Shown piece after piece: positions 1-62,583 of a stretch of 64,000 nucleotides of DNA. How positions within the stretch are numbered: the stretch's first letter is position 1; each line of letters starts with the position of its first letter. The DNA is from Escherichia coli (GTDB lineage: Bacteria > Pseudomonadota > Gammaproteobacteria > Enterobacterales > Enterobacteriaceae). A program made the translations under genes and the position numbers. Under the pieces are notes generated by a model. It searched no databases. It was not told where the DNA came from and saw only the letters and a list, made by a program, of their open reading frames with translations. The DNA is taken from NCBI RefSeq assembly GCF_022846255.1, contig NZ_AP025682.1. One strand, 5' to 3'.

Positions 1-759
1 GCCGTTGTGCTGGTGGGTAGTAACCCTGCATCGCAAATTTATGTCGCAAGCAAACGCAAGGCTTGTGAAGAAGTCGGGTTCGTCTCCCGCTCTTACGACC
101 TCCCGGAAACCACCAGCGAAGCGGAGCTGCTGGAGCTTATCGATACGCTGAATGCCGACAACACCATTGATGGCATTCTGGTTCAACTGCCGTTACCGGC
201 GGGTATTGATAACGTCAAAGTGCTGGAACGTATACACCCGGACAAAGACGTAGACGGTTTCCATCCTTATAACGTCGGTCGCCTGTGCCAGCGCGCGCCG
301 CGTCTGCGTCCCTGCACCCCGCGCGGTATTGTCACGCTGCTTGAGCGTTACAACATTGATACCTTCGGCCTCAACGCCGTGGTGATTGGCGCATCGAATA
401 TCGTTGGCCGCCCGATGAGCATGGAACTGCTACTGGCAGGTTGCACCACCACCGTGACTCACCGTTTCACTAAAAATCTGCGTCACCACGTAGAAAATGC
501 CGATCTACTGATCGTTGCCGTCGGCAAGCCGGGCTTTATTCCTGGTGACTGGATCAAAGAAGGCGCAATTGTGATTGATGTCGGCATCAACCGTCTGGAA
601 AATGGCAAAGTTGTGGGCGACGTCGTGTTTGAAGACGCGGCTAAACGCGCCTCATACATTACGCCTGTTCCGGGCGGCGTTGGCCCGATGACGGTTGCCA
701 CGCTGATTGAAAACACGCTACAGGCGTGCGTTGAATATCATGATCCACAGGGTGAGTAA
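1..759 (+). CDS. folD: Bifunctional methylenetetrahydrofolate dehydrogenase/cyclohydrolase FolD; 5' end truncated by window edge
   Basis: ORF 7..759 translation matches the FolD C-terminal ~250 aa ([22 protein letters not shown] motifs); frame stays open to position 1. Confidence 0.95.
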
Positions 760-760
760 C

Positions 761-973
761 ATGGCGACATTTTCTTTAGGTAAACATCCGCACGTTGAGC
801 TGTGCGACTTGCTGAAACTGGAAGGCTGGAGCGAAAGCGGCGCGCAGGCGAAAATCGCGATAGCAGAAGGCCAGGTGAAAGTCGACGGTGCGGTTGAAAC
901 GCGCAAACGCTGCAAAATCGTCGCCGGTCAGACAGTGAGTTTTGCAGGTCACAGCGTACAGGTTGTTGCCTGA
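761..973 (+). CDS. ybcJ: S4-like RNA-binding protein YbcJ
   Basis: ATG at 761 gives MATFSLGKHPHVELCDLLKLEGW..., 70 aa; the ORF-track upstream extension (707) overlaps folD and is unlikely. Confidence 0.85.
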   Translation: MATFSLGKHPHVELCDLLKLEGWSESGAQAKIAIAEGQVKVDGAVETRKRCKIVAGQTVSFAGHSVQVVA

Positions 974-981
974 TCCCTTTC

Positions 982-1013
982 CCGGCCTGTAACAACAGGC
1001 CGGTTCTCTTTTC
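982..1013 (+). terminator. Rho-independent terminator after folD-ybcJ
   Basis: Inverted repeat ccggcctgt/acaggccgg followed by a T-rich run. Confidence 0.5.
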
Positions 1014-1080
1014 AGACTGTTGCCCTCTACGCCCCGTTCATCCATGCTGATAGCATCGACATTTTGCCGAAGCGACCATC

Positions 1081-1602
1081 ATGCCAACCGTTATTACGCA
1101 CGCCGCCGTTCCCCTTTGCATTGCTTTAGGGTTGGGTTCGAAAGTCATCCCTCCGCGCCTGTTATTTGCCGGAATCATCCTGGCGATGCTGCCCGATGCC
1201 GACGTCTTGTCGTTTAAATTTGGCGTTGCTTACGGCAATGTTTTTGGTCATCGCGGGTTTACCCATTCGCTGGTGTTTGCGTTTGTTGTCCCGCTGTTAT
1301 GTGCGCTGATTGGACGCCGATGGTTCAGGGCTGGGCTGATTCGCTGCTGGCTGTTTTTAACCGTCTCGTTGCTATCGCACAGCTTGCTGGATTCGGTAAC
1401 CACTGGCGGTAAAGGCGTTGGCTGGCTGTGGCCGTGGTCAGATGAACGCTTTTTCGCCCCCTGGCAGGTGATTAAAGTCGCGCCGTTTGCATTGTCTCGT
1501 TACACCACAGCGTACGGGCATCAGGTGATTATTTCTGAATTGATGTGGGTGTGGTTGCCGGGGATGCTACTGATGGGAATGTTGTGGTGGCGCAGACGAT
1601 AA
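1081..1602 (+). CDS. ybcI: Inner-membrane metal-dependent hydrolase family protein YbcI (DUF457)
   Basis: 173 aa hydrophobic ORF at the conserved position between ybcJ and cysS. Confidence 0.9.
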   Translation: MPTVITHAAVPLCIALGLGSKVIPPRLLFAGIILAMLPDADVLSFKFGVAYGNVFGHRGFTHSLVFAFVVPLLCALIGRRWFRAGLIRCWLFLTVSLLSHSLLDSVTTGGKGVGWLWPWSDERFFAPWQVIKVAPFALSRYTTAYGHQVIISELMWVWLPGMLLMGMLWWRRR

Positions 1603-1626
1603 CCGGATGCGAAAACTCGCATCCGG
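1603..1626. terminator. Bidirectional hairpin between convergent ybcI and cysS
   Basis: ccggatgcg-aaaact-cgcatccgg perfect inverted repeat between the two stop codons. Confidence 0.5.
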
Positions 1627-1637
1627 CAATTGCGCAA

Positions 1638-3023
1638 TTACTTACGACGCCAGGTGGTCCCTTGTGGGCCATCTTCCAGCACGATCCCCATCTCGTTAAG
1701 ACGGTCACGCGCCGCATCTGCCGCCGCCCAGTCTTTCGCTTTACGGGCATCCAGACGCTGTTGAATTAACGCTTCAATCTCAGCCACTTCGCTGTCGTCT
1801 GCCTGCGCGCCGCTTTGCAGGAACGCTTCTGGTTCTTGCTCCAGCAGGCCCAATACGGCGGAAAGTTTACGCAGATGAGACGCCATTGCGTTCGCCGCTG
1901 CCATATCTTCTGCTTTCAGACGGTTCACTTCACGGGCCATATCAAACAGCACGGAATAGGCTTCCGGGGTGTTGAAATCGTCGTCCATCGCTTCAATAAA
2001 GCGCGCTTCAAACGCTTCGCCACCGGCAGGCGCAACAGTTTTATCTGTGCCGCGCAGCGCAGTGTAGAGACGCTCCAGCGCCGCACGCGCCTGCTTCAGG
2101 TTCTCTTCGCTGTAGTTCAGCTGGCTGCGATAGTGGCCCGACATCAGGAAGTAACGCACGGTTTCAGCATCGTAGTATTTCAGCACATCGCGCACGGTAA
2201 AGAAGTTACCCAGCGATTTGGACATCTTCTCGCGGTCAACCATCACCATTCCGGAGTGCATCCAGTAGTTCACATACTGACCATCATGGGCACAGGTGGA
2301 CTGCGCGATTTCGTTTTCGTGGTGCGGGAACATCAGGTCAGAACCGCCGCCGTGGATATCAAAGTGGTTACCCAGCTGCTTGCAGTTCATTGCCGAACAT
2401 TCAATGTGCCAGCCAGGACGGCCCGCGCCCCACGGAGACGGCCAGCTCGGTTCGCCCTCTTTCGACATCTTCCACAGAACGAAGTCCATCGGGTTGCGTT
2501 TGTCGTCGACCACGTCAACGCGCGCGCCTGCCTGCAGCTGGTCGAGATCCTGACGCGACAGCACGCCATATGTCGGATCGGTCGGTACGTCAAACATCAC
2601 GTCGCCGTTGTCCGCCACATAAGCGTGACCTTTGGCGATCAGTTGTTCAGTGAGTTCAATAATTTCTGCGATATGGTGCGTCGCGCGCGGCTCCATATCC
2701 GGGCGCAAAATGTTCAACGCATCAAAATCTTTATGCATTTCGGCGATCATGCGATCCACCAGCGCCACAAAGCTTTCGCCATTTTCATTGGCGCGTTTGA
2801 TGATTTTGTCGTCGATATCAGTAATGTTGCGCACATACTTCAGCTTATAGCCGAGGAAACGCAGGTAGCGCGCGACCACGTCAAAGGCAACAAAGGTACG
2901 CCCGTGACCGATATGACAGAGATCGTAAACGGTGATTCCACACACGTACATGCCGACTTCCCCGGCGTGAATAGGCTTAAATTCCTCTTTTTGGCGTGTC
3001 AGAGTATTGAAGATTTTTAGCAT
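1638..3023 (-). CDS. cysS: Cysteine--tRNA ligase
   Basis: 461 aa; class I aaRS HIGH (CHIGHGRT) and KMSKS motifs present in the translation. Confidence 0.97.
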
Positions 3024-3196
3024 CGAAGATTCCGTTTAGACATGTGTGGGTAATTGAGTTGCGTATAATACCCATATTTCCCGCGCGAATCAGCATACAT
3101 TGCGTGATGATCCGATCGTGCGGTTATGCTATAACACCACCCTATATATGACCCGAACCGGGTTGAAGCACCAATCAAACGGAACAGGATGCAAAA

Positions 3197-3691
3197 ATGG
3201 TTACTTTCCACACCAATCACGGCGATATTGTCATCAAAACTTTTGACGATAAAGCACCTGAAACAGTTAAAAACTTCCTGGACTACTGCCGCGAAGGTTT
3301 TTACAACAACACCATTTTCCACCGTGTAATCAACGGCTTTATGATTCAGGGCGGCGGTTTTGAGCCGGGCATGAAACAAAAAACCACCAAAGACCCGATC
3401 AAAAACGAAGCCAATAACGGTCTGAAAAATACCCGTGGTACGCTGGCAATGGCCCGTACTCAGGCACCGCACTCTGCAACTGCACAGTTCTTCATCAACG
3501 TGGTTGATAACGACTTCCTGAACTTCTCTGGCGAAAGCCTGCAAGGTTGGGGTTACTGCGTGTTTGCTGAAGTGGTTGAAGGCATGGACGTGGTAGACAA
3601 AATCAAAGGTGTTGCAACCGGTCGTAGCGGTATGCACCAGGACGTGCCAAAAGAAGACGTTATCATTGAAAGCGTGACCGTTAGCGAGTAA
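3197..3691 (+). CDS. ppiB: Peptidyl-prolyl cis-trans isomerase B (cyclophilin)
   Basis: 164 aa [27 protein letters not shown]... cyclophilin fold. Confidence 0.97.
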
Positions 3692-3693
3692 TC

Positions 3694-4416
3694 GTGGCGA
3701 CACTCTTTATTGCAGATCTTCATCTCTGCGCGGAAGAACCGGCGATCACCGCCGGTTTTCTGCGTTTTTTAGCGGGGGAGGCCCGCAAGGCCGATGCGCT
3801 GTATATTCTTGGCGATCTGTTTGAAGCCTGGATCGGCGACGACGATCCCAACCCGCTCCATCGCCAGATGGCGGCAGCGATCAAAGCGGTGTCCGATTCC
3901 GGCGTTCCCTGTTATTTCATTCATGGCAACCGTGATTTTCTGCTCGGCAAACGCTTTGCCCGTGAAAGCGGCATGACGTTATTGCCGGAAGAAAAGGTGC
4001 TCGAACTTTATGGTCGTCGGGTGTTGATTATGCATGGCGACACGCTGTGCACCGATGACGCGGGTTATCAGGCTTTTCGTGCCAAAGTCCACAAACCCTG
4101 GCTGCAAACGCTATTCCTCGCCCTGCCGTTGTTTGTGCGCAAACGCATTGCCGCGCGAATGCGCGCGAACAGTAAAGAAGCCAACAGCAGTAAATCGCTG
4201 GCGATCATGGACGTTAACCAAAACGCGGTGGTCAGTGCGATGGAAAAACATCAGGTGCAATGGCTGATTCACGGGCATACCCATCGCCCGGCAGTACATG
4301 AACTTATCGCCAATCAGCAACCTGCTTTCCGCGTCGTGCTGGGTGCCTGGCATACGGAAGGTTCAATGGTGAAAGTCACGGCGGATGACGTTGAGCTGAT
4401 TCATTTTCCGTTTTAA
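3694..4416 (+). CDS. lpxH: UDP-2,3-diacylglucosamine pyrophosphohydrolase LpxH
   Basis: 240 aa calcineurin-like phosphoesterase (DLHL, GNRD, GHTH motifs); GTG start 3 nt after the ppiB stop. Confidence 0.93.
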
Positions 4417-4445
4417 ATACCCGCAACTTTGCTGATTTCACAGCC

Positions 4446-4461
4446 ACGCAACCGTTTTCCT
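4446..4461 (+). promoter_or_regulatory. Candidate PurR operator upstream of purEK
   Basis: acgcaaccgttttcct resembles the PurR box consensus (aCGCAAACGTTTtCnT) and lies ~70 nt upstream of the purE start. Confidence 0.5.
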
Positions 4462-4532
4462 TGCTCTCTTTCCGTGCTATTCTCTGTGCCCTCTAAAGCC
4501 GAGAGTTGTGCACCACAGGAGTTTTAAGACGC

Positions 4533-5042
4533 ATGTCTTCCCGCAATAATCCGGCGCGTGTCGCCATCGTGATGGGGTCCAAAAGCGACTGGGCTACCAT
4601 GCAGTTCGCCGCCGAAATCTTCGAAATCCTGAATGTCCCGCACCACGTTGAAGTGGTTTCTGCTCACCGCACCCCCGATAAACTGTTCAGCTTCGCCGAA
4701 AGCGCCGAAGAGAACGGTTATCAGGTGATTATTGCGGGCGCAGGCGGCGCAGCGCACCTGCCTGGCATGATTGCCGCCAAAACGCTGGTGCCGGTGCTGG
4801 GCGTGCCAGTACAGAGCGCCGCACTGAGCGGTGTCGATAGCCTCTACTCCATCGTACAAATGCCGCGCGGCATTCCGGTGGGTACGCTGGCGATTGGTAA
4901 AGCTGGCGCGGCAAACGCGGCGTTACTGGCAGCACAAATTCTTGCGACTCATGATAAAGAACTGCACCAGCGTCTGAATGAATGGCGCAAAGCACAAACT
5001 GATGAAGTGCTGGAAAACCCGGACCCGCGAGGTGCGGCATGA
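4533..5042 (+). CDS. purE: N5-carboxyaminoimidazole ribonucleotide mutase PurE
   Basis: [20 protein letters not shown]...; ATG at 4533 (the ORF-track start at 4506 is an upstream extension). Confidence 0.93.
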
Positions 5043-6106
5043 AACAGGTTTGCGTCCTCGGTAACGGGCAGTTAGGCCGTATGCTGCGTCAGGCAGGCGA
5101 ACCGTTAGGCATTGCTGTCTGGCCAGTCGGGCTGGACGCTGAACCGGCGGCGGTGCCTTTTCAACAAAGCGTGATTACCGCTGAGATAGAACGCTGGCCG
5201 GAAACCGCATTAACCCGCGAGCTGGCGCGCCATCCGGCCTTTGTGAACCGCGATGTGTTCCCGATTATTGCTGACCGTCTGACTCAGAAGCAGCTTTTCG
5301 ATAAGCTCCACCTGCCGACCGCACCGTGGCAGTTACTTTCCGAACACAGCGAGTGGCCTGCGGTGTTTGATCGTTTAGGTGAGCTGGCGATTGTTAAACG
5401 TCGCACTGGTGGCTATGACGGACGCGGTCAATGGCGTTTACGCGCCGATGAAACCGAACAGTTACCGGCTGAATGCTACGGCGAATGTATTGTCGAGCAG
5501 GGCATAAACTTCTCAGGTGAAGTGTCGCTGGTTGGCGCGCGCGGCTTTGATGGCAGCACCGTGTTTTATCCGCTGACGCATAACCTGCATCAGAACGGCA
5601 TTTTGCGCACCAGCGTCGCTTTCCCGCAGGCCAATGCACAGCAACAGGCGCAAGCTGAAGAGATGTTGTCGGCGATTATGCAGGAGCTGAGCTATGTGGG
5701 CGTGATGGCGATGGAGTGTTTTGTCACCCCACAAGGTCTGCTGATCAACGAACTGGCTCCGCGTGTGCATAACAGCGGTCACTGGACGCAAAACGGTGCC
5801 AGCATCAGCCAGTTTGAGCTACATCTGCGGGCAATTACCGATCTGCCGTTACCGCAACCAGTAGTGAATAATCCGTCGGTGATGATCAATCTGATTGGTA
5901 GCGATCTGAATTATGACTGGCTGAAACTGCCGCTTGTGCATCTGCACTGGTACGACAAAGAAGTCCGTCCGGGCCGTAAAGTGGGGCATTTGAATTTGAC
6001 CGACAGCGACACATCGCGTCTGACCGCGACGCTGGAAGCCTTAATCCCACTGCTGCCGCCGGAGTATGCCAGCGGCGTGATGTGGGCGCAGAGCAAGTTC
6101 AGTTAA
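5039..6106 (+). CDS. purK: N5-carboxyaminoimidazole ribonucleotide synthase PurK
   Basis: 355 aa ATP-grasp protein; start overlaps the purE stop (ATGA). Confidence 0.95.
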
Positions 6107-6123
6107 TTGATGCTCATTTTCTT

Positions 6124-6309
6124 GCCGGATGCGGCGTGAACGCCTTATCCGGCCTACCGTTCCAACACCGCCTGTAGGCCTGATAAGATGCGCCAGCATC
6201 GCATCAGGCATGGTGTGCCGATTGCCGCATGCGGCGTGAACGCCTTATCCGGCCTACCGTTCCAACACCGACTGTAGGCCTGATAAGACGCGCCAGCATC
6301 GCATCAGGC
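6124..6309. repeat. REP/BIME cluster; two tandem ~100 bp units
   Basis: gccggatgcggcgtgaacgccttatccggcctac and its inverted partner gtaggcctgataaga...gcatcaggc occur twice in tandem. Confidence 0.8.
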
Positions 6310-6338
6310 TAGATGTGCCAATTGCCTGGTGCCCATCA

Positions 6339-7232
6339 CTACAGCGAAATACAAGTCCCCGCTTCGCCCGCCAGCGTCTCTTCAATCCGCGATAACGCCC
6401 CAATCCACGCGGGTTTACCACGGCTTCTGACATAGCCACTCACCGCCGTTACCTTCGGCCCCATCGAACCATCGGCTTTGGCAAATGGCGCTAACTCATC
6501 CGGTGTGGCATGGCGAATGGCACGTTGCTGCGGCGTTCCCCAGTTTTCATATACCGCATCAGCATCGGTGAGGATCACCAGTCCATCGGCATTAATCTGC
6601 TCGGCGAGCAACGCAGCGGCGAGATCTTTATCAATCACCGCTTCACTCCCTGCCCCGTCTTCCGTCACAGGCACACCGCCGCCGCCACTGCAAATCACCA
6701 CATGCCCCTCTTTGAGCAACAACTCGATGGCTTCGCTGTCGAGAATTTTACGCGGTTGCGGAGACGCCACCACCCGGCGTAAATATTTACCATCACGTTT
6801 CATCTGCCAGCCGTAAGCCGCTTCCAGTGCCTCTTGTTCTTCTGGCTGATAAACCGGACCAATAAATTTCTCTGGCTGTAAAAACGCCGGATCATCAGGC
6901 GAAACCTCAATGCGCGTCAGCACCGTCGTGACAGGCGGCATCTGCGGCTGTGCGCTCAAGCTCTGCGCCAGCATATAGCCAATCATCCCCTGGCTTTCCG
7001 CCACCAGTACATCCAGCGGATACGGTTCTACCTCTTTCCACGCCAGATTCTGTAACGCCAGCAGCCCCACCTGCGGTCCGTTGCCGTGAACAATCGCCAG
7101 CCGATAAGAACGGGCCAGGCGCGCCAGCGCGGGTACAGCACTGGCAATATTGCGATATTGATTTTTTGCCGTCAGCGCCTCACCGCGCTGGAGTAAGGCG
7201 TTGCCCCCAAGAGCCACAACCAGTGTTTTCAT
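6339..7232 (-). CDS. ybcF: Carbamate kinase-like protein (allantoin/oxamate pathway)
   Basis: [18 protein letters not shown]... amino-acid kinase family; ATG at 7230-7232 (the ORF-track start at 7346 is an upstream extension). Confidence 0.9.
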
Positions 7233-8044
7233 GGTTTCCCTTGTAATAATTGTTGGCCAAGCCAGAACCCCAGCAGCGTATCGGCCCCTGACGTATGCCC
7301 CAGCGCCAGCAGCGAATCGATCGCCGCTGCGGTACGTTTCGGGCAACTCAGAGCATGAACAAAGTGCAGGAGTGGCGAGGCGAAATATCCTTGCGCGGCA
7401 TAACGTAAATAACTGACGCTCACCGCAGTGGTAACGAGTTGAAGATTGTCGGAACAGGCAAAAAACGGGCGACCGGAGCGCGCATCTAAAGCACCATAAT
7501 ACCAGGCCGCCAGCAGCATTCCGCTCAGCGTGTCATCATGACTTGGCGTTAATCCGGGGCCTTTACCCAGCCAGTGCCGCCAGTCGGTCTTAACGCCATT
7601 GAGCGCGGCCTGAAAACAGTGACGAAACTGGCGTAATTCAGCAGGCAGCGGATCGCTTGCCGCCAATGCCAGTGGCCCGAAAAGCCCGGTTTCCTCCGCG
7701 CGTTGCATCCATGCAACGGCAAGCGGTTGAGGATGCGCAGGCGGCGTAATACGTAGCAAACAATAACGCTGTGGCTGTTTAACCGTGAAACGCCCGAGAC
7801 GAATCCCTTGTGCCACAACCTGTGGTCGTTCATTGCCGCATAATCCACCGCATAACGCATCGAATTGCGCGCGGCGAAGCACCCATCCGCCGGGGCCGAA
7901 ACCACTCCCCTGACGATGCAGCGTTAACAGTTCGCCGCTTTCCGTCATCAGGTTAATCGCCCGCCGCCACACTCCCGCTAACCGCCAGGACTGGCGATAA
8001 TTCGGTGCGCTACGGCTGGCAAGTAGAGGATGGATGATCGTCAT
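7229..8044 (-). CDS. ylbF: YlbF, DUF2877 protein of the fdrA-ylbE-ylbF-ybcF operon
   Basis: [20 protein letters not shown]..., 271 aa; ATG at 8042-8044; stop overlaps the ybcF start. Confidence 0.85.
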
Positions 8045-8054
8045 TGTGCGTTCC

Positions 8055-9314
8055 TCAACCAATCCCCATGCTTTCAGCCAGTGCTTCCAGCGCCTGTTCA
8101 AAGCACGCCAGCGGTGCCCGCACGGTGCCTGCGCCAATCTGCCCGATCCCCGCCTCTTTATGGGCGATACCGGTATTGATGAGTGGCGTAATGCCGGTTT
8201 CTACCACGCGACGAATGTCCAGCCCCAGGCACGCCCCCTGGAAATCCCAGCCGGGGATCTGCAATTGCATATTGCGTTCAAGGTAAATTTCCGCCATCTC
8301 TTCAGATACCGCTCTGGCCGCTTCCATGCCACCCGCACCGACAAAGCGCGTTACGCCAGGCGCTGCGATCATTGCCGCACCTCCGATACCAAAGGTTTCG
8401 GTAATCGCGCTATCGCCCATATCCGGGTTCGCCTGCTCCTGCGAGAAGCCGGTGAAAAACAGACCTTGCGGAGTGTTTACAGGCGCAGTAAACCAGCGTT
8501 CACCCAGCCCGCTTACCCGAATCCCGAACATATTGCCGTTGCGGGTCATAGCCGTAACGATGCTGCCTGCGCGGATCATCGCGCCTGCATCCATCGCCGC
8601 CTTGCAGTAGGCCATCGCGAGATTGAGGAAGAACTGATCGGTCACGCTGAGGAAATCCATCACTTCGGCGATGTGCTGTTTATCATGATCGAGGCGAGCA
8701 ATTTGTGGGGCCAGCGCACGCATTAACAGTGCAGAGGAAGCAATATTGCGTTGATGGAACTCATCGCCCATGGTAATGCCCTGCGCCATCATTGCCGTGA
8801 GATCGATACCGCGCTCCATGCGCCCCAGCGCCGCGCTTAATACTGGCATTAACACATCGCGCATCCAGCGATGGCGAGTCAGGACATCTTCGCCGTAAGC
8901 GCCAAAACGCATCACTTTGCCGATACCTTCGTTGAGGTTGCAGTACGCCCGGTTGCCGTCGGTCACGTTCTCGACCACCAGCATCGGCATACTGGCAGAA
9001 GTAATGCCACCCATTGGCCCGACGGCATTCACATGGTGACAAGGAATGAAGTTCACTTCCCCCTGCTCCAGTATTGCCAGCGCCTGCGCTTCATCTTTCG
9101 CCCAGCCTTCGAACAGACATGCGCCCACGCACGCCCCTTTCATGGGTCCGGTCATCTCCTGCCAGCGCATTGGCGGCCCGGCGTGAAGCAGTGTTTTGCC
9201 CTTGTTTAGTTCGCTGATAAGTGAAGAAGCCGGTTGCACATCCAGCCAGTGTGGACGAGCGCGACGAATTTGTTCGATAACCGCAGCATTGGCTTGCGCC
9301 ACTGATGTAAACAT
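8055..9314 (-). CDS. ylbE: YlbE, DUF1116 protein; intact 419 aa
   Basis: Uninterrupted 419 aa ORF between fdrA and ylbF. Confidence 0.85.
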
Positions 9315-9323
9315 GGGAACCCC

Positions 9324-10991
9324 TTATTGCAAACGTTCTAATAAACGAGCCAGTTTTTTATTGCCGCCGGCGACTGGCGACCATTGGTAATGCACAACCG
9401 GTTTGCTGGCGCTTTGTAGCTCCAGCGCAAAGCTGCGTAATCCGATGTTAATCACGGCGACGTTTTCCAGTAATGACGGTGTGTGTTGCTGTGTGGCAGG
9501 CGAGAGCGGATGAATTAATGCCGCCGCCAGCAAGGTGGCTTCCGGTAGCGAACTCACTACCGCGATCCCCGCATCTTCCAGCGTGGCAATTTGCTGCGAG
9601 CGACATTGCGGATCACGTTCAGTGCCTGTCACCGTGGCAATGGCATACAGTGGTTGATTGTCTGAACGCGCGGCACAGGCTTTTTGCCAGGCGCTCACCA
9701 GCGAGGCGGCAGGATCGGCGGTCGCACCGAAGCCAATCACGACATCAAGCAGCAACACGCGCACTTGCGGTTTAGCGCCGAGATCGGCAATTAACAGGTT
9801 GCGTAAGGTCGGGTCGATCATCGGATGGGGACGCCCGACGGTGTAAAAATCATCGCCCAGGTCGAGGATCTGATGTCCGTCGGCGTCCAGCATCATGCCA
9901 TGTTGATGGGTATCGTCGGCTTCCACGCCAAGGTGTCCGGCAAGTAATCCCGCCGCTTCAGCAGCCAGCGTACCGCCGGTATACAAACCGCAAATAAATC
10001 CGCTGCTGACAGGCGCTATCGCGTTACGTCGCGCAGTGACGCGTGAAAGCAGACAAGCCAGACGAGCGGCCTCATCCAGCGAGGAGGCAAACCAGACATT
10101 CTCGTCGCGGGCCACCGCTGGGGTATAACCTAAAAACAGCGCCACCGTCGGTTTGCCAGTTGCTTTCATGGCATTAACAATTTTCAGACGCACAGTTTCG
10201 GCAGGTGGTTTTGAAACAAATGCCAGCACTTCGCTTTTCTCGTCTGCACTGAGCATTTCCAGCGCCGTTAGCGCACTGATGCCGCCCACTTCACGGCTGA
10301 GATCGCGCCCGCCAAGACCAATCGCGTGAGTAATTCCCTCCCCTGCCAGCGCAATCTGTGAGCACAGCTCCTGAATCCCGGTACCGGAAGCGCCTATGAC
10401 GCCAATGTTGCCTTCCGGCATCACGTTAGCAAAAGCCAGCGGCGTGGCGGCAATCATCGACGTACCGCAGTCTGGCCCCATCACCAGCAAGCCTTTTTCC
10501 CGCGCGCGCGTTTTAAGTTGGATTTCATCTTCCAGCGTGACGTTATCGGAGAACATCATCACGTTGAGGTTGCGATCCAGCGCCTGGTTCGCCAGCTCCG
10601 CCGCATACTCACCAGCCACTGAAATCAGCGCCAGATTGGCATCGGGTAATTTCTGACTGGCACTGTCCCAGCGACGCACCTGCGTCAACGCCTGGCTGCT
10701 GCCTGAACCCTGCGCCAGTTGTTTTAGCGCCTCTTCAAGCTGCTGCATAACCGCCTGCGCGATCCCCGCATCCGCCGCTTCGCTACGAATTGCCACGCAA
10801 ATATCGTTCGGCGTGGCGTTATTAAAATCGTCATGCCAGAAACCTGTAGTATCTAATAACGCTTTATTGGCGGGCGTACCCATCATTACGGAAACATCAT
10901 CAACATTTTCTGATTCGCTGAGTTTTCGTGAAATAATCATTAAACTGACCGAATCCTGAAAACACCCTTTTTTAATAAAGGCGTGGATCAT
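9324..10991 (-). CDS. fdrA: FdrA, succinyl-CoA-ligase-alpha-like protein
   Basis: 555 aa with CoA-binding/ligase-like Gly-rich segments; ATG at 10989-10991. Confidence 0.9.
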   Translation of the reverse strand: MIHAFIKKGCFQDSVSLMIISRKLSESENVDDVSVMMGTPANKALLDTTGFWHDDFNNATPNDICVAIRSEAADAGIAQAVMQQLEEALKQLAQGSGSSQALTQVRRWDSASQKLPDANLALISVAGEYAAELANQALDRNLNVMMFSDNVTLEDEIQLKTRAREKGLLVMGPDCGTSMIAATPLAFANVMPEGNIGVIGASGTGIQELCSQIALAGEGITHAIGLGGRDLSREVGGISALTALEMLSADEKSEVLAFVSKPPAETVRLKIVNAMKATGKPTVALFLGYTPAVARDENVWFASSLDEAARLACLLSRVTARRNAIAPVSSGFICGLYTGGTLAAEAAGLLAGHLGVEADDTHQHGMMLDADGHQILDLGDDFYTVGRPHPMIDPTLRNLLIADLGAKPQVRVLLLDVVIGFGATADPAASLVSAWQKACAARSDNQPLYAIATVTGTERDPQCRSQQIATLEDAGIAVVSSLPEATLLAAALIHPLSPATQQHTPSLLENVAVINIGLRSFALELQSASKPVVHYQWSPVAGGNKKLARLLERLQ

Positions 10992-11307
10992 AACAACTCC
11001 TTAAAAATTGCACCCATGGCAATTGCACGAGCAGTGTTAATGTGGCGATTACGGTATCGATGACAACGAGTAAATAAGGTGATGAATATCACACGTGGAT
11101 TATTAACAAAAGAATTCAAATAACCGCCAGACTATTACGCGTTATTTTTTAATAAGCATGGTTGTTTTAAAAACCAGGTTAAAAGCACGAAGATTATCAA
11201 ATAAATTCTAACTATATTTTTTTGCCTGTCTGGATCACATAATCCAGATATTTTCCCTGTATGTTAATTGCAGTCATGCTTCACACCGTCGTTAAAAAGG
11301 AAGACAG

Positions 11308-12357
11308 ATGAAAATCAGTCGGGAAACACTCCACCAGCTAATCGAGAATAAACTCTGCCAGGCTGGGTTAAAACGTGAGCACGCTGCAACCGTGGCTGAA
11401 GTATTGGTTTACGCCGATGCCAGAGGGATCCACTCTCATGGCGCGGTGCGCGTTGAATACTACGCCGAACGCATTTCAAAAGGCGGCACCAACCGCGAAC
11501 CGGAGTTTCGTCTTGAGGAAACCGGACCGTGCTCGGCAATTTTACATGCCGACAATGCCGCCGGACAGGTCGCGGCGAAAATGGGTATGGAACATGCCAT
11601 CAAAACCGCCCAGCAAAAAGGCGTTGCGGTGGTCGGTATCAGCCGGATGGGTCACAGCGGCGCAATCTCTTATTTTGTGCAGCAGGCTGCCCGCGCCGGA
11701 TTGATTGGCATTTCGCTGTGCCAGTCCGATCCAATGGTGGTGCCGTTTGGCGGCGCGGAAATTTACTACGGCACTAACCCACTGGCCTTTGCCGCGCCGG
11801 GAGAAGGCGACGAGATCCTTACCTTTGATATGGCGACTACCGTACAGGCATGGGGAAAAGTGCTCGACGCCCGCTCGCGCAATATGTCTATCCCGGATAC
11901 CTGGGCAGTCGATAAAAACGGTGCACCAACAACCGATCCGTTCGCGGTACATGCTCTGCTCCCCGCCGCTGGGCCGAAAGGGTATGGCCTGATGATGATG
12001 ATTGACGTCCTCTCAGGCGTCTTACTCGGCTTACCGTTCGGGCGACAGGTTAGTTCGATGTATGACGATTTACACGCCGGGCGTAATTTGGGGCAATTAC
12101 ATATAGTTATTAACCCGAACTTTTTCTCCTCCAGCGAATTATTCCGTCAACATCTTAGCCAGACCATGCGCGAATTAAATACCATTACCCCCGCGCCCGG
12201 TTTTAATCAGGTTTATTATCCCGGACAGGATCAGGATATTAAACAACGCAAAGCCGCCGTCGAAGGCATCGAAATTGTTGATGATATTTACCAGTATTTA
12301 ATTTCCGACGCGCTTTATAACACGTCATACGAAACGAAAAATCCCTTTGCGCAATAA
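11308..12357 (+). CDS. allD: Ureidoglycolate dehydrogenase
   Basis: 349 aa MKISRETLHQLIENKL... (Ldh_2 family); RBS aaggaag upstream. Confidence 0.93.
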   Translation: MKISRETLHQLIENKLCQAGLKREHAATVAEVLVYADARGIHSHGAVRVEYYAERISKGGTNREPEFRLEETGPCSAILHADNAAGQVAAKMGMEHAIKTAQQKGVAVVGISRMGHSGAISYFVQQAARAGLIGISLCQSDPMVVPFGGAEIYYGTNPLAFAAPGEGDEILTFDMATTVQAWGKVLDARSRNMSIPDTWAVDKNGAPTTDPFAVHALLPAAGPKGYGLMMMIDVLSGVLLGLPFGRQVSSMYDDLHAGRNLGQLHIVINPNFFSSSELFRQHLSQTMRELNTITPAPGFNQVYYPGQDQDIKQRKAAVEGIEIVDDIYQYLISDALYNTSYETKNPFAQ

Positions 12358-12378
12358 TTATTGAGACAGGACTTTCTT

Positions 12379-13614
12379 ATGATTACACATTTCCGTCAAG
12401 CTATAGAAGAAACGCTGCCCTGGCTTTCCTCTTTTGGCGCTGACCCAGCGGGTGGGATGACCCGTTTACTTTATTCGCCGGAATGGCTGGAAACCCAGCA
12501 GCAGTTTAAAAAAAGAATGGCAGCAAGCGGGCTGGAAACACGTTTCGATGAAGTGGGGAATTTATACGGTCGCCTGAGTGGCACCGAATATCCACAGGAA
12601 GTGGTTCTGAGCGGTTCGCATATCGATACCGTGGTTAACGGCGGTAACCTCGACGGGCAATTCGGTGCGCTGGCGGCGTGGCTGGCAATTGACTGGCTGA
12701 AAACGCAATACGGCGCGCCGTTACGTACGGTCGAAGTGGTGGCGATGGCAGAAGAAGAAGGCAGCCGCTTCCCGTATGTCTTCTGGGGCAGTAAAAATAT
12801 CTTTGGGCTGGCGAATCCTGACGACGTGCGGAATATCTGTGATGCCAAAGGAAATAGTTTTGTCGATGCGATGAAGGCTTGCGGATTTACTCTGCCGAAC
12901 GCCCCACTAACTCCGCGTCAGGATATTAAAGCCTTTGTCGAACTGCATATCGAACAGGGCTGTGTGCTGGAAAGTAATGGGCAGTCAATTGGCGTGGTGA
13001 ATGCAATTGTCGGGCAACGTCGCTATACGGTGACGCTGAACGGTGAATCAAACCATGCAGGCACCACGCCGATGGGTTATCGTCGTGATACGGTTTACGC
13101 TTTCAGTCGCATTTGCCATCAGTCTGTCGAAAAAGCGAAAAAGATGGGCGACCCGCTGGTTCTGACCTTTGGCAAAGTAGAGCCGCGCCCGAATACGGTG
13201 AATGTAGTGCCGGGTAAAACCACGTTCACCATTGATTGTCGTCATACCGATGCTACCGTGCTGCGCGATTTCACCCAACAGTTAGAAAACGACATGCGGG
13301 CGATTTGCGATGAAATGGATATTGGTATTGATATCGATTTATGGATGGACGAAGAACCCGTGCCGATGAATAAGGAGCTGGTCGCCACCCTGACAGAATT
13401 GTGTGAAAGCGAAAAACTGAATTACCGGGTGATGCACAGTGGTGCCGGGCACGACGCGCAAATTTTCGCGCCTCGCGTGCCGACCTGCATGATTTTCATT
13501 CCCAGCATCAACGGGATCAGCCATAACCCGGCGGAACGCACCAATATTACCGACCTTGCCGAAGGGGTCAAAACGTTGGCACTCATGCTTTATCAACTTG
13601 CCTGGCAGAAATAA
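12379..13614 (+). CDS. allC: Allantoate amidohydrolase
   Basis: MITHFRQAIEETLPW... M20 peptidase family; ATG at 12379 preferred over the in-frame upstream ATG at 12361. Confidence 0.9.
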   Translation: MITHFRQAIEETLPWLSSFGADPAGGMTRLLYSPEWLETQQQFKKRMAASGLETRFDEVGNLYGRLSGTEYPQEVVLSGSHIDTVVNGGNLDGQFGALAAWLAIDWLKTQYGAPLRTVEVVAMAEEEGSRFPYVFWGSKNIFGLANPDDVRNICDAKGNSFVDAMKACGFTLPNAPLTPRQDIKAFVELHIEQGCVLESNGQSIGVVNAIVGQRRYTVTLNGESNHAGTTPMGYRRDTVYAFSRICHQSVEKAKKMGDPLVLTFGKVEPRPNTVNVVPGKTTFTIDCRHTDATVLRDFTQQLENDMRAICDEMDIGIDIDLWMDEEPVPMNKELVATLTELCESEKLNYRVMHSGAGHDAQIFAPRVPTCMIFIPSINGISHNPAERTNITDLAEGVKTLALMLYQLAWQK

Positions 13615-13624
13615 GGAGTTATAA

Positions 13625-14410
13625 ATGGGATATTTAAATAACGTCACCGGTTACCGCGAAGATTTACTGGCTAACCGTGCGATTGTTAAACACGGTAATT
13701 TCGCACTGTTAACACCAGACGGTCTGGTAAAAAATATTATTCCGGGCTTTGAAAATTGTGACGCGACAATCCTCTCCACGCCAAAGCTGGGTGCCTCTTT
13801 TGTTGATTATCTGGTCACACTGCATCAAAACGGCGGCAACCAACAGGGTTTCGGTGGCGAAGGCATTGAAACGTTCCTGTATGTGATCTCTGGAAATATC
13901 ACTGCCAAAGCCGAAGGGAAAACATTTACCTTAAGTGAAGGTGGCTATCTTTATTGCCCGCCAGGCTCCTTAATGACGTTTGTTAACGCCCAGGCCGAAG
14001 ACAGCCAAATCTTTTTATATAAGCGTCGCTATATTCCGGTAGAAGGTCATGCGCCGTGGCTGGTTTCTGGCAATGCCAGCGAACTGGAACGCATTCATTA
14101 TGAAGGCATGGACGATGTTATTCTGCTGGATTTTCTGCCCAAAGAGTTAGGTTTTGATATGAACATGCATATCCTCTCTTTTGCACCAGGTGCCAGCCAC
14201 GGTTATATCGAAACCCACGTTCAGGAACACGGTGCCTATATTCTTTCCGGTCAGGGGGTTTATAACCTCGACAATAACTGGATCCCGGTGAAAAAAGGCG
14301 ATTACATCTTTATGGGCGCTTATTCTTTACAGGCTGGTTATGGCGTAGGGCGTGGTGAAGCGTTCAGCTATATTTACTCGAAAGATTGCAACCGCGACGT
14401 AGAGATTTAA
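13625..14410 (+). CDS. allE: (S)-ureidoglycine aminohydrolase (cupin)
   Basis: 261 aa bicupin protein directly downstream of allC. Confidence 0.9.
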   Translation: MGYLNNVTGYREDLLANRAIVKHGNFALLTPDGLVKNIIPGFENCDATILSTPKLGASFVDYLVTLHQNGGNQQGFGGEGIETFLYVISGNITAKAEGKTFTLSEGGYLYCPPGSLMTFVNAQAEDSQIFLYKRRYIPVEGHAPWLVSGNASELERIHYEGMDDVILLDFLPKELGFDMNMHILSFAPGASHGYIETHVQEHGAYILSGQGVYNLDNNWIPVKKGDYIFMGAYSLQAGYGVGRGEAFSYIYSKDCNRDVEI

Positions 14411-14452
14411 GTCATACCACTCGCCTGATTATTTTTAGCTATGTTGGATTTT

Positions 14453-14479
14453 GCCACGGTTTATACCGTGGCTTTTTTT
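14453..14479 (+). terminator. Rho-independent terminator of the allDCE operon
   Basis: gccacggt-ttat-accgtggc hairpin followed by TTTTTTT. Confidence 0.55.
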
Positions 14480-14494
14480 GTAGTCAATTCAGGT

Positions 14495-26330: not shown

Positions 26331-27440
<1,110 letters not shown>

Positions 27441-27466: not shown

Positions 27467-27668
27467 GCCGGATGCGGCGTGAACGCCTTATCCAGCCTAC
27501 AGGTGAGTGCTGTTTCGTAGGCATGATAAGACGCGCCTGCGTCGCATCTGGCATCGGCGCACAACTGCCAGATGCGGCGTAAACGCCTTATCCGGCCTAC
27601 ACAATCTTGCAAAATCAATATATTGCTCGATCCTCGTAGGCCTGATAAGCGAAGCGCATCAGGCAATC
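27467..27668. repeat. REP/BIME cluster
   Basis: Several gccggatgcggcgt(g/a)aacgccttatccggcctac-type palindromic units in alternating orientation. Confidence 0.8.
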
Positions 27669-27680: not shown

Positions 27681-30095
27681 TCATCCCGCAAACTGCCTGA
27701 ACAGCGCCTTACCCTTAACCAGTCGCGCACCCAGCCAGCCGCCGCAAAGCGACAGCAGCAGCGCACCGCTGCACGGCAGAACAATCCACAATCGCCAGTC
27801 TGGCTCCCACGGGAAATCAAACACTTTCGATTGCAGTACCGCCAGTGCCGTTTCCGCACCAATTGCGGCCACCAGGCCAGAAACAAACCCGATCATGGCG
27901 AACTCACACCACAATGTCGTGCGCAGTAGTTTTTTCCCCGCACCGAGTGTGCGCCACACCACCAGCTCCTGATGACGCTGACGCATTCCCACCTGCACCT
28001 GTGCCAGCAACAGCAACATACCGCAGGCGGTGACCAGCACCACCATCACTTCCAGCGCCCGACTTACCTGCTCCAGCACCTGACCGACCTGTTTTAAAAT
28101 CGCGCCAATGTCTAACAGGCTAATGGTAGGGAACTGGCGGTTGAGTTGCGTCAACATGCCGTTGCCATTCTCCCAGCGGAAACTGGTAAGCCAGCTCTGC
28201 GGTTGCCCGTCTAATGCCCCTTCCGGGAAAATAAAATAGAAATTAGGCCGCAGACTTTCCCAGTCCACTTTGCGCAGGCTGGTCACTTTAGCGCGGAACT
28301 CCTGGGTATCGCCCATAAAGGTGACTGTATCGCCGAGGCCAACGTTTAAGCGTTTCGCCAGCCCCTCTTCCATCGACACTTCATCGGCTTTTGGCGGCCA
28401 GTTACCGGCGACAATCGGATTATGATCGGGCCGCGTATTTTGCCAGGTAAGATTGAGTTCGCGGTTAAGCGCCTCATCTTCATTGCCTTCTGTCGGCTTG
28501 TCGTTAATCGCCGTCAGTCGCGCCCGCACCACCGGATAAAATGATTCCGGGACTATCTGATGTTCCGCGAGGAACGTTTTTAGCGGCGTAACCTGTTCTG
28601 TGGCGATGTTGATTAAAAAGTAGTTCGGGCTTTCTGGCGGTAGCTGCTGTTGCCAGCGGTCGAGCAGATCGCCACGCAATACCAGCAACAGCGCCAGCAG
28701 CATAAAGGAGAGCGAAAATGCCGAAAGCTGGCTTAACGTTGACCACGGCTGACGTAACAGGCGGCTAACCGCCAGGCGCAGAGGTAGCGATTTCAGCGTC
28801 ATGCGGCGAAGTACATTCAGCAGCATCCAGCCCAGCACACCGCACAGCAAAGCCAGTACTACCGCGCCCGCCAGCACCGCCCAGAGCAGCATACTGCCGC
28901 CCATTAATCCGGCGAGCAGCAGCACAACCACCACACTGACAATCGGCAGATAAAACTTCAGCGGCCAGACGTTCGCGACCACATCATTACGCAATACGCG
29001 TAAAGGCTGCGTTGCCAGCAACAAGCGGTACGGTCGTAGCCCCACCAGCAGCGAGATGACCGTCATGGTGCCCAGCGCCCACAGCCACGGCCAGAGGCTG
29101 GCTGGCGGTAGTGCAGCAGGCAGAACGGGCTTGAGCAGCACCATCAACACGTTTTCGAACAACAGGCCTATCGCCCCACCGGTAACGGCTGAAAGCGTCA
29201 GCACCATCAACCACTGACCGACGATTAGCTTACGCAGTTGCGCTCGCCCTGCCCCCAGCGTTTTGAGGATCGCCACCAGATCGTAGCGACTGCGACAGTA
29301 ATGATTCATCGCTACCGCCACCGCTGCCACTGCCAGCAGCAAGGTCAGAAGCGCCGAAAGTAGCAGGAACTGTTGCGAACGTTCCATCGAGCGCCCCAGC
29401 GCGCCTTCGTCCTGTTCCAGACCGTACCAGCGTTGTTCGGGTTTAAGCTGGGGTAACAACCATTTCTCATAGCCGTCGAGCTGGTTCTCGTTGCCGCCGA
29501 ATTTATAGCGCCAGGTGACCCGACTTCCCGGCTGCACGGCTCCGGTTTTATCAACATCCGCCAGATTCATCATCAGGCGTGGGGCTATCTGGAAAGGATT
29601 AAAACCGGAATCCGGTTCCTGAATCACTTCTCCGGCAATCCGCAAGGTGGCATCGCCCACGTCAATGGTGTCGCCCGTTTTCAGGTTAAGCAGTGCCATC
29701 AGGCGTGGGGCCAGCAATACGCTGCCCGCCTGTGGTTTCAGGCCAGGGGGATTGGTTTGCAGATCGCCATACATCGGGTAGATATCATCCACCGCTTTGA
29801 CGTTCGCCAGTTGCGGCGTATCGCCCGCAAAAGTCATCGTGGCGAAAGTCAGCTGCTTGCCGACTTTCAGGCCGCGCTTTTGCGCTTCCTCCAGCCATGC
29901 TTGCGGCACTTCGCGCGAACTGCGCAACGCCCGATCGCCCGCCATAAACTCCCGGCTTTGCTGGCTTAAGCCCTTCTCCATGCGATCGCTGATGTTGCCC
30001 AGCGCCAGCACGCAGGCCACCGCCAGGCTTAGCGCCAGCCAGACAATTAACAGCGACGGCGAGCGCCATTCGCGCCAGAACCAACGTGCAATCAT
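27681..30095 (-). CDS. ybbP: ABC transporter permease (FtsX-like, two permease domains)
   Basis: 804 aa polytopic protein; start overlaps the ybbA stop (ATGA). Confidence 0.9.
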   Translation of the reverse strand: MIARWFWREWRSPSLLIVWLALSLAVACVLALGNISDRMEKGLSQQSREFMAGDRALRSSREVPQAWLEEAQKRGLKVGKQLTFATMTFAGDTPQLANVKAVDDIYPMYGDLQTNPPGLKPQAGSVLLAPRLMALLNLKTGDTIDVGDATLRIAGEVIQEPDSGFNPFQIAPRLMMNLADVDKTGAVQPGSRVTWRYKFGGNENQLDGYEKWLLPQLKPEQRWYGLEQDEGALGRSMERSQQFLLLSALLTLLLAVAAVAVAMNHYCRSRYDLVAILKTLGAGRAQLRKLIVGQWLMVLTLSAVTGGAIGLLFENVLMVLLKPVLPAALPPASLWPWLWALGTMTVISLLVGLRPYRLLLATQPLRVLRNDVVANVWPLKFYLPIVSVVVVLLLAGLMGGSMLLWAVLAGAVVLALLCGVLGWMLLNVLRRMTLKSLPLRLAVSRLLRQPWSTLSQLSAFSLSFMLLALLLVLRGDLLDRWQQQLPPESPNYFLINIATEQVTPLKTFLAEHQIVPESFYPVVRARLTAINDKPTEGNEDEALNRELNLTWQNTRPDHNPIVAGNWPPKADEVSMEEGLAKRLNVGLGDTVTFMGDTQEFRAKVTSLRKVDWESLRPNFYFIFPEGALDGQPQSWLTSFRWENGNGMLTQLNRQFPTISLLDIGAILKQVGQVLEQVSRALEVMVVLVTACGMLLLLAQVQVGMRQRHQELVVWRTLGAGKKLLRTTLWCEFAMIGFVSGLVAAIGAETALAVLQSKVFDFPWEPDWRLWIVLPCSGALLLSLCGGWLGARLVKGKALFRQFAG

Positions 30096-33113: not shown

Positions 33114-33262
33114 TTGTAGGCCTGATAAGACGCGCCAGCGTCGCATCAGGCATCCGCACATAGCCGCCGGATGCGGCGTGAACGCCTTATCCGGCCTACC
33201 AAACCGTGCTAATTCAATACATTGCAGGTGCCATGTAGGTCTGATTAGACGCATCAGGCATC
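33114..33262. repeat. REP/BIME cluster
   Basis: gtaggcctgataagacgcgccagcgtcgcatcaggc and gccggatgcggcgtgaacgccttatccggcctac units. Confidence 0.8.
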
Positions 33263-35772: not shown

Positions 35773-36227
35773 TGGAGTTAATGGTCGTTCATCCACATAT
35801 TTTCTGGCTCAGTCTCGGCGGGTTGCTGCTGGCAGCCGAGATGCTGGGCGGAAATGGTTATTTGTTGTGGAGCGGCGTGGCAGCGGTGATTACCGGTCTG
35901 GTGGTCTGGCTGGTGCCGCTGGGTTGGGAGTGGCAAGGGGTGATGTTTGCCATTCTGACACTGCTCGCCGCCTGGTTGTGGTGGAAATGGCTGTCGCGGC
36001 GGGTGCGCGAACAAAAGCACAGCGATAGTCATTTAAACCAGCGCGGGCAGCAGCTGATTGGCCGACGTTTTGTGCTGGAATCTCCGCTGGTCAACGGGCG
36101 CGGTCATATGCGCGTCGGTGACAGTTCATGGCCTGTCAGCGCCAGCGAGGATCTCGGTGCAGGTACGCATGTTGAAGTCATTGCGATAGAAGGGATAACG
36201 CTGATCATCCGTGCGGTCATCGCCTGA
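35769..36227 (+). CDS. ybbJ: NfeD-like membrane protein YbbJ
   Basis: 152 aa; start overlaps the qmcA stop (coupled SPFH/NfeD pair). Confidence 0.9.
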
Positions 36228-36312
36228 TGCGACGCTGACGCGTCTTATCATGCCTACAAAATATGCCCGAATCGTAGGCCAGATAAGGCGCTTGCGCCGC
36301 ATCCGGCATATA
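36222..36312. repeat. REP element pair
   Basis: gcctgatgcgacgctgacgcgtcttatcatgcctac ... gtaggccagataaggcgcttgcgccgcatccggc. Confidence 0.75.
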
Positions 36313-44707: not shown

Positions 44708-45502
44708 ATGGATCTGTTGTACCGGGTAAAAACGCTTTGGGCCGCGCTGCGCGGTAATCATTACACCTGGCCTGCTATCGATATCTCTCTTCCCGGCAAT
44801 CGCCATTTTCATCTGATTGGCAGTATTCATATGGGCAGCCACGATATGGCTCCCCTGCCCACCCGTTTGCTCAAAAAGCTCAAAAACGCCGATGCGCTGA
44901 TCGTCGAGGCGGATGTTTCCACCAGCGATACGCCTTTTGCTAATTTGCCTGCCTGCGAGGCGCTGGAAGAGCGCATTAGCGAGGAGCAATTACAAAACCT
45001 GCAGCACATTAGCCAGGAGATGGGCATTTCTCCGTCGCTCTTTTCTACCCAACCGCTGTGGCAAATCGCGATGGTTCTTCAGGCGACGCAGGCGCAAAAA
45101 CTGGGGCTGCGGGCAGAATACGGTATCGATTACCAGCTATTGCAGGCGGCGAAGCAACAACATAAACCCGTGATTGAACTGGAAGGGGCAGAAAACCAGA
45201 TTGCCATGTTGCTCCAGCTCCCTGACAACGGACTGGCGCTGCTGGACGATACGCTGACCCACTGGCACACCAATGCACGGTTGCTGCAACAAATGATGAG
45301 CTGGTGGCTGAATGCGCCGCCGCAAAATAATGAAATAACGCTGCCTAATACGTTCAGTCAGTCGCTGTACGATGTGCTGATGCATCAGCGAAATCTCGCC
45401 TGGCGGGACAAATTATGCGCCATGCCGCCGGGGCGCTATGTGGTCGCAGTCGGTGCACTACACCTGTATGGAGAAGGGAATTTGCCGCAGATGTTGCGCT
45501 AA
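44708..45502 (+). CDS. ybaP: TraB-family protein YbaP
   Basis: 264 aa MDLLYRVKTLWAALRGNHYTWPAIDISLPGN...; strong RBS aagggagg. Confidence 0.9.
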   Translation: MDLLYRVKTLWAALRGNHYTWPAIDISLPGNRHFHLIGSIHMGSHDMAPLPTRLLKKLKNADALIVEADVSTSDTPFANLPACEALEERISEEQLQNLQHISQEMGISPSLFSTQPLWQIAMVLQATQAQKLGLRAEYGIDYQLLQAAKQQHKPVIELEGAENQIAMLLQLPDNGLALLDDTLTHWHTNARLLQQMMSWWLNAPPQNNEITLPNTFSQSLYDVLMHQRNLAWRDKLCAMPPGRYVVAVGALHLYGEGNLPQMLR

Positions 45503-45584
45503 AAAAATGGCCAATATCGCTATTGGCCCGTCAAAGAGGAATTTCATATTTTTATTATTATGCCGTCACTTTAAGCGACGGTGT
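45501..45584 (-). ncRNA. chiX: ChiX (MicM/SroB) small regulatory RNA
   Basis: Minus-strand sequence acaccgtcgcttaaagtgacgg...ttgacgggccaatagcgatattggccattttttt matches the remembered ChiX sequence, including the terminator hairpin and U-tail, in the ybaP-ybaK spacer. Confidence 0.8.
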
Positions 45585-62529: not shown

Positions 62530-62583
62530 AAAATAAATGGGGCCGCTAAATGTCCCCTAAGATTGCGGGCAAACGCAAAACTG

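Follow-up and report, generated by a model that had tools for sequence, protein, structure and literature searches.

The window, by which we mean the whole 64,000-nt stretch of Escherichia coli DNA that was analysed, carries a repeated tract between two convergent genes, purK on the plus strand and ybcF on the minus strand (Table 1). The stop-to-stop spacer between these genes measures 232 nt and contains the tract entirely, which places it outside genes at the 3′ ends of transcription units. An initial annotation of this DNA had described the tract as a tandem pair of composite REP (BIME) units in the purK-ybcF spacer. Tandem Repeats Finder reported 6122-6326 as one tandem array with a period of 100, 2.0 copies, 93% matches, 0 indels and a score of 361, and a repeat search of the window aligned the unit at 6122-6221 head-to-tail with the unit at 6222-6321 at 93% identity (7 mismatches). 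The best 100-nt self-match observed was 93/100, compared with a maximum of 52/100 and a mean of 44 in 200 Markov-1 surrogates of the region. These results confirmed a tandem pair of composite REP units, 2 × 100 nt with 93% identity, and the RefSeq annotation of matching E. coli genomes bore out purK and ybcF as its neighbours. The span first given for the feature, 6124-6309, runs from the first REP stem through the last REP stem; the repeated tract exceeds it by 2 nt on the left and by 12-17 nt on the right. A 61-aa ORF at 6254-6439 (-) was rejected as a gene, as it starts inside a REP and overlaps the 3′ end of ybcF out of frame. The purK-ybcF spacer has no REP feature in the curated K-12 record NC_000913.3.

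Table 1 Features of the purK-ybcF spacer and its flanking genes, in window coordinates
Feature	Coordinates	Strand	Remarks
purK CDS, N5-carboxyaminoimidazole ribonucleotide synthase	5039..6106	+	TAA stop 6104-6106; from the ORF list and the RefSeq annotation of matching genomes
Left flank TTGATGCTCATTTTC, 15 nt, from purK stop to array	6107..6121		Shared without change by all arrays that have this flank type
Repeat unit 1, 100 nt: y REP, S linker, z2 REP, internal linker	6122..6221	+	
y REP no. 1, 34 nt, GCCGGATGCGGCGTGAACGCCTTATCCGGCCTAC	6124..6157	+	Predicted RNA hairpin -21.3 kcal/mol
S linker no. 1, tail-to-tail, 16 nt, CGTTCCAACACCGCCT	6158..6173		Fits motif CGNTCCNNNACCNNNT of other BIME-2 loci
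z2 REP no. 1, 36 nt, inverted	6174..6209	-	Predicted hairpin about -20 kcal/mol on either strand
z2-l-y junction, product of the tandem arrangement	6177..6254	-	Match to Rfam naRNA4 (RF02564)
Internal linker, head-to-head, 14 nt, ATGGTGTGCCGATT	6210..6223		Shared by all multi-unit arrays
Repeat unit 2, 100 nt, with terminal linker variant at its end	6222..6321	+	
y REP no. 2, 34 nt	6224..6257	+	G-to-C at 6228 breaks a stem pair; predicted hairpin -14.4 kcal/mol
S linker no. 2, 16 nt, CGTTCCAACACCGACT	6258..6273		
z2 REP no. 2, 36 nt, inverted	6274..6309	-	
Right boundary: terminal linker TAGATGTGCCAA, degenerate truncated y-REP head TTGCCTGGTGC, flank to ybcF stop	6310..6338		
ybcF CDS, putative carbamate kinase, convergent with purK	6339..7232	-	Stop 6339-6341; from RefSeq annotation transferred from genome L001 and the ORF list

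REPs were located by a fuzzy pattern scan for REP arms, which gave 15 REPs at 7 loci across the whole 64-kb window, 4 of them in the purK-ybcF array. The period of the array is the sum of its parts (34 + 16 + 36 + 14 = 100 nt). Folding predicted a hairpin of about -14 to -21 kcal/mol for each array REP on either transcript strand, and energies of -104.1 kcal/mol (z = -4.96) for the plus strand and -108.2 kcal/mol (z = -3.71) for the minus strand of the whole spacer. The G-to-C change at 6228 in the stem of the second y REP is uncompensated and takes the predicted hairpin from -21.3 to -14.4 kcal/mol; since several other strains have this change in their first units, it is an inherited variant and not one private to the window. 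The truncated y head that follows unit 2 is homologous to TTGCCGGATGC, which stands at the same place in other alleles, and because of this head the array is bounded by short direct repeats, a layout favouring slippage. A motif scan of the region found no sigma-70-like promoter and no intrinsic terminator motif. The first REP stem begins 17 nt past the purK stop. Liang, Rudd and Deutscher are said to have reported in 2015 that REPs within 15 nt of stop codons cause ribosome stalling; the 17-nt distance makes this mechanism borderline at purK.

BIME-1 elements combine z1 and y REPs across a long, IHF-binding L linker and occur as a single copy (Ton-Hoang et al. 2012, PMC3333891), whereas BIME-2 elements combine z2 and y REPs across a short S linker and occur in multiple tandem copies, the number of which depends on the strain (PMC3333891, citing Bachellier et al. 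1994, 1997). We set the REP types from these definitions, with a BIME-1 at 62583-62680 of the window as an internal reference. This element is a classic BIME-1, composed of a 29-nt z1 REP, a 35-nt linker with the AT-rich, IHF-like core AATATATTGAATT and an inverted 34-nt y REP. Because REPs of 29 and 34 nt face each other there across a 35-nt AT-rich linker, and because the 36-nt class partners y over 16-nt linkers, REPs of 34 nt were assigned to y, those of 29 nt to z1 and those of 36 nt to z2.

Typed in this way, the purK-ybcF array consists of REPs of 34, 36, 34 and 36 nt on the +, -, + and - strands, that is, of alternating y and z2. Both 16-nt linkers, at 6158-6173 and 6258-6273, follow the S-linker motif CGNTCCNNNACCNNNT, the units stand in tandem, with two in the window and 1-7 in other strains, and their number varies from strain to strain at this same locus. 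The array thus shows all the sequence-level features that define BIME-2, and the 29-nt z1 REP and 35-nt linker of BIME-1 are both absent from 6122-6321. Two independent observations support the y/z2 typing: the junction between the units matches the naRNA4 model, which is a Z2-l-Y model, and the S-linker motif recurs in BIME-2 arrays elsewhere. In a degenerate scan of species representatives, the motif was found at other loci in E. whittamii and in another Escherichia species, one of these loci being a tandem array with the same 100-nt period. Among these representatives the exact S-linker variants gave no match, and the degenerate motif matched only other loci. A query containing the array had a median of 34 matching places per genome.

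With the BIME-2 family (Gilson, Bachellier, Hofnung; PMC3333891) the array shares alternating y/z2 REPs, the S linker, tandem pairs, a position at gene 3′ ends and a variable copy number. Nothing substantial sets it apart from that family: it is a locus-specific allele, the exact sequence of which is absent from the 5,426 complete genomes searched (best match, 98.3%). The feature is already known in kind, the tandem copies of BIME-2 and their between-strain variation in number having been published (PMC3333891). BIME-1 shares the y REP and the inverted-pair layout with the array but has z1, a 35-nt L linker and a single copy, where the purK-ybcF array is built of tandem copies with z2 and 16-nt linkers. 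In REPIN doublets, which RAYT (TnpA-REP) transposases mobilise, an inverted pair of REP hairpins is likewise the repeating unit of a dispersed, genome-wide population; these doublets disperse to new sites, whereas the change at purK-ybcF is a local, in-register change of copy number at a fixed site. The RAYT gene of K-12 sits outside the region covered by this window.

Further elements were recorded elsewhere in the window. A second REP array at 27467-27664 has a 100-nt y-to-y period and consists of y, a 16-nt linker, z2, a 14-nt linker, y, a 35-nt AT-rich linker and z1. This array, an 'atypical BIME' that is a chimera of BIME-2 and BIME-1, lies between the convergent ORFs 26346-27440 (+) and 27681-30095 (-), and its z2-l-y junction passes the naRNA4 gathering score (70 bits). 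The other REP loci are a z2-l-y pair at 33116-33199 (82.6 bits with the naRNA4 model), a z2-S-y pair at 36222-36307 and a lone 36-nt REP at 51243-51278. Rfam matches at gathering level were also obtained for the DnaX frameshift element (59219-59283, -), the STnc480 sRNA (14417-14483, -) and the sroB sRNA (45501-45584, -); matches to CRISPR-DR48 and mir-2796 were far below their gathering scores and were rejected.

We surveyed the spacer in the E. coli population with a synthetic query of flank sequence only, in which 250 nt from the 3′ end of purK were joined to 250 nt from that of ybcF, and took the span of each matching record minus 500 as the spacer length. The query matched 5,425 of the 5,426 complete E. 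coli genomes. Sampling the match ranking twice at even intervals yielded 111 distinct genomes, and about 170 of the 5,426 genomes were looked at overall. Alleles of the 100-nt family had one unit in 2 of the 111 sampled genomes, two units in 3, three units in 3 and five units in 14. Most other E. coli carried different spacer alleles of 119-204 nt: the sample contained spacers of 135-138 nt (34 genomes), 194 nt (the K-12 type, 34), 204 nt (8), 152 nt (5), 126 nt (5) and 119 nt (2), and the allele of one genome was unresolved. From the ranks at which identity drops, we estimated that about 210-275 genomes have 500-nt flanks identical to those of the window. The 60 top-ranked genomes, all with 100% identical flanks, had 1 unit (n = 31, including CFT073, Nissle 1917, 536 and ATCC 25922), 2 units (n = 8), 3 units (n = 14), 5 units (n = 6) or 7 units (n = 1). 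The initial annotation had proposed such a comparison of copy number across E. coli and had named, as the outcome that would speak against its reading, exactly two identical copies in every strain. This was found to be false, since the locus is strongly polymorphic, with 1, 2, 3, 5 or 7 units under 100% identical flanks.

Fetched sequences bore out these unit counts and showed that the alleles of 135-138 nt contain one y-S-z2 pair, in which the S linker has diverged. In K-12 MG1655 (L005 508-701) the 194-nt spacer consists of y-S-z2-l and then of a y REP that has lost ~40 nt internally and is joined to another z2; the K-12 spacer is a decayed two-unit array. The 152-nt allele, carried for instance by PE144 (L008 508-659) and BEN2908, has no REP at all, and because it makes up ~4.5% of the sampled genomes the REP element is dispensable. 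In place of REPs this allele carries an unrelated G/C-tract hairpin element, CCCTCTCCCC-ACA-GGGGCGAGGGG, which may resemble the 'Box C' repeat. In WP5-S17-ESBL-11 (L026 3251-3400), a deletion of ~7.5 kb from the ybcF stop to inside allE joins window position 6344 to 13827, and the automatic annotation starts a truncated 'allE' at an ATG within the y REP. A REP-mediated origin of this deletion was rejected, the BIME being intact and the breakpoint lying just outside it.

On a larger scale, the 12.4 kb at 101-12500 of the window had a best identity of 98.6-98.7% among the 5,426 genomes, although the array's 500-nt flanks match those of the group containing CFT073, Nissle and their relatives at 100% identity. 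The 12.4-kb region looks like a recombination mosaic, or else the lineage of the strain is unrepresented among these genomes. With this longer query, the copy-number reading in the closest genomes is confounded by an indel of ~418 nt elsewhere in the query.

The initial annotation had further taken the near-identity of the two units as a sign of recent local duplication, and this was not supported. A duplication in the window strain or its immediate ancestors would make the differences between the units later mutations. Four of the seven differences, however, lie in the last 12 nt of the unit, where an internal linker, ATGGTGTGCCGA, stands against the terminal linker, and this contrast is conserved in every multi-unit array examined (2, 3, 5 and 7 units, from several lineages). 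A single-unit allele copied afresh would give an internal linker equal to the terminal one, and none of the arrays examined had a terminal-type linker internally. The linker of the other allele family has 2 differences from the internal type and 6 from the terminal type. The three differences in the core (unit columns 7, 50 and 68) are variants common to units of other strains, and the nearest relative of each unit is found in another strain: unit 1 of the window has 1 difference from unit 3 of L011/L012 and unit 2 has 1 difference from unit 1 of L010/L017, whereas the cores of the two window units differ from each other at 3 of the 88 nt compared (3.4%), a comparison of 1 versus 3 differences that gene conversion from other genomic REPs could blur. 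The 500-nt flanks show zero differences from more than 200 genomes, against the 3.4% between the unit cores. Recent duplication would agree with the different copy numbers among genomes with identical flanks, with the absence of the window's exact allele from other complete genomes and with the occurrence of in-register duplications such as the step from 5 to 7 units by a 200-nt block, but in view of the linker contrast, the closer relatives elsewhere and the unchanged flanks we consider it improbable.

At least five distinct two-unit haplotypes were distinguished (those of the window, L001, L019, L022 and L010/L017, with L016 as a further variant), which indicates that the two-unit state arose more than once. 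It is scarcely credible that the duplication was created by faulty assembly of repetitive DNA. Short reads can lead to mis-assembly of 100-nt repeats, and BH100 and BH100N, two assemblies of one strain, do differ in copy number; the units in the window, however, are resolvable by 7 differing positions, and many independent complete genomes have two-unit arrays, which fall into several distinct haplotypes. As judged from the unit variants, the pair in the window is an old array of two already diverged units and no fresh copy.

Maps of the unit variants also bear on how copy number changes. The 7-unit array (L020) equals the 5-unit array (L014) plus one 200-nt block of two units. Both arrays display a 200-nt higher-order periodicity, in which unit variants alternate. 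No 4- or 6-unit array was present among the ~170 genomes, which may merely reflect clonal sampling. The single unit of the CFT073 type differs from the last unit of L001 only at one linker position and in having A17, a marker of first units. In the single unit of BH100N (L021), the unit-1 markers A29 and G57 are joined to the terminal linker of unit 2 of BH100 (L022), with a crossover between columns 57 and 89 and also a 1-nt deletion. Because these units are chimeras of first and last units, single-unit alleles arose by contraction, the direction of change (expansion versus contraction) being inferred from the chimeric units only. BH100, with 2 units, and BH100N, with 1 recombinant unit, are substrain assemblies of one clinical isolate, and the change from the former to the latter either took place within the strain, as a real contraction, or is an assembly artefact.

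By these comparisons of sequence, the array expands and contracts in register, by 100- or 200-nt steps between lineages. Units would be gained and lost when the 100-nt direct repeats misalign, through replication slippage or unequal sister-strand recombination, and hairpin extrusion or the REP-associated transposase TnpA-REP may help the misalignment. The finding of crossovers in different intervals, together with steps of 100 and 200 nt, fits such homology-driven misalignment. Alternatively, the REP-associated tyrosine transposase (TnpA-REP/RAYT) might itself drive the change in copy number by cleaving and rejoining at REP feet, in place of slippage or unequal recombination. BIME cleavage and strand transfer by TnpA-REP occur in vitro and models of tandem BIME amplification have been proposed (PMC3333891), and the crossover interval of one chimera (columns 17-57) takes in the CT-GTAG foot of z2. 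The crossover in BH100N, at columns 57-89, instead misses the CT-GTAG foot and lies within the z2 REP or past it, and the varied crossover intervals and the 200-nt steps fit generic homology-based misalignment. We therefore regard the transposase as an unlikely driver, though one with some chance of being right, and favour misalignment between homologous units.

The constancy of copy number in large clones indicates that the rate of change is modest: all 13 sampled genomes of the group with 99.0% flank identity had the same 533-nt, 5-unit spacer. Two further suggestions of the initial annotation were supported. The locus had been proposed as a recombination hotspot, and the recombinant units and the possible 2-to-1 change between BH100 and BH100N do fit a hotspot of recombination or slippage. 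It had also been proposed as a strain-typing marker, and it is informative at the level of lineages but not hypervariable. Bacterial VNTR or minisatellite loci as used in MLVA typing are similar in having a repeated unit, here of 100 nt and in 1 to 7 copies, and internal unit variants that can be mapped; the purK-ybcF array differs from them in that its unit comes from a dispersed palindromic family and its copy number is stable within large clones, so that its resolution is at lineage level.

Taken together, we estimate at about 85% the probability that the feature is a REP array of the BIME-2 class, with the structure (y REP - S linker - inverted z2 REP - l linker) × 2 plus a truncated y head, that it is old and minisatellite-like, gaining and losing units in register, and that its two-unit state consists of two already diverged variants and not of a fresh copy.

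The array lies in the spacer between the 3′ ends of two convergent transcription units, purEK and ylbEF-ybcF. REPs and BIMEs have a stabilising effect on the mRNA upstream of them (PMC3333891), and the 3′ ends of stable RNAs have been mapped to BIMEs, with stabilisation of the genes upstream (PMC9023263). By analogy, the REP hairpins of about -20 kcal/mol at both converging 3′ ends would block 3′-to-5′ exonucleases at the RNA level and would thereby stabilise the 3′ ends of the mRNAs or define where they lie. In vivo, BIME-2 elements are enriched in gyrase cleavage sites, mainly in y REPs and independently of transcription, cleavage being reported for only a subset of BIME-2 elements among which purK-ybcF is not named (PMC6379681). 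At the DNA level, the y REPs may likewise be gyrase binding and cleavage sites that absorb positive supercoils between the convergent genes. By comparison with these elements, we infer that the purK-ybcF BIME-2 is best read as stacks of 3′-end hairpins for both transcripts combined with a gyrase site.

The z2-l-y junction at 6177-6254 (-) matched the Rfam model naRNA4 (RF02564) over its full length (model positions 1-77), with 75.6 bits against a gathering score of 59.5. The naRNA4 model is described as Z2-l-Y and represents a product of the REP325 cluster between yjdM and yjdN (PMC4550694). The array might on this basis be primarily a gene for an naRNA4-like nucleoid RNA that condenses DNA with HU, with the duplication creating one full Z2-l-Y unit, and an RNA with two hairpins (Z2 and Y) is indeed required for HU-mediated condensation (PMC4550694). 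The number of above-threshold matches follows the number of units, with four in the 5-unit allele and none in one-unit alleles, as the z2-l-y junction needs at least two units. The model, however, also matches two other BIMEs, being above its gathering score at three different BIMEs in the window; since it matches any z2-l-y junction, a match denotes a sequence class and not a function. In addition, the published function belongs to REP325 at yjdM-yjdN (PMC4550694) and not to purK-ybcF, and many strains have one unit or no REP in the purK-ybcF spacer. An naRNA4-like gene is accordingly a very improbable reading of the array. REP325/naRNA4 (RF02564; Qian et al. 2015, PMC4550694) and the purK-ybcF array share a tandem architecture of Y-l-Z2 units and a junction above the gathering threshold, but REP325 has six units at yjdM-yjdN, whereas the array has two at purK-ybcF.

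It would be a long shot to regard the copy number itself as non-neutral. Each unit would then add a Z2-l-Y RNA module and a gyrase-preferred y REP and would tune the 3′-end stability of purEK/ybcF, the relief of supercoils or the dosage of HU-RNA, and the counts would have been fixed by selection in each lineage (five in the clone with 99.0% flank identity, one in the CFT073/Nissle group).

These results indicate that the appropriate annotation for the element is a BIME-2 REP array, not an unexplained duplication, and the element has little further importance. REP arrays are spots at which short-read assemblies and automatic gene callers can err. In E. coli, the length of the purK-ybcF spacer (119 to 732 nt) offers an inexpensive marker at the level of lineages, and the maps of its unit variants provide a small worked example of in-register expansion and contraction of BIME-2.
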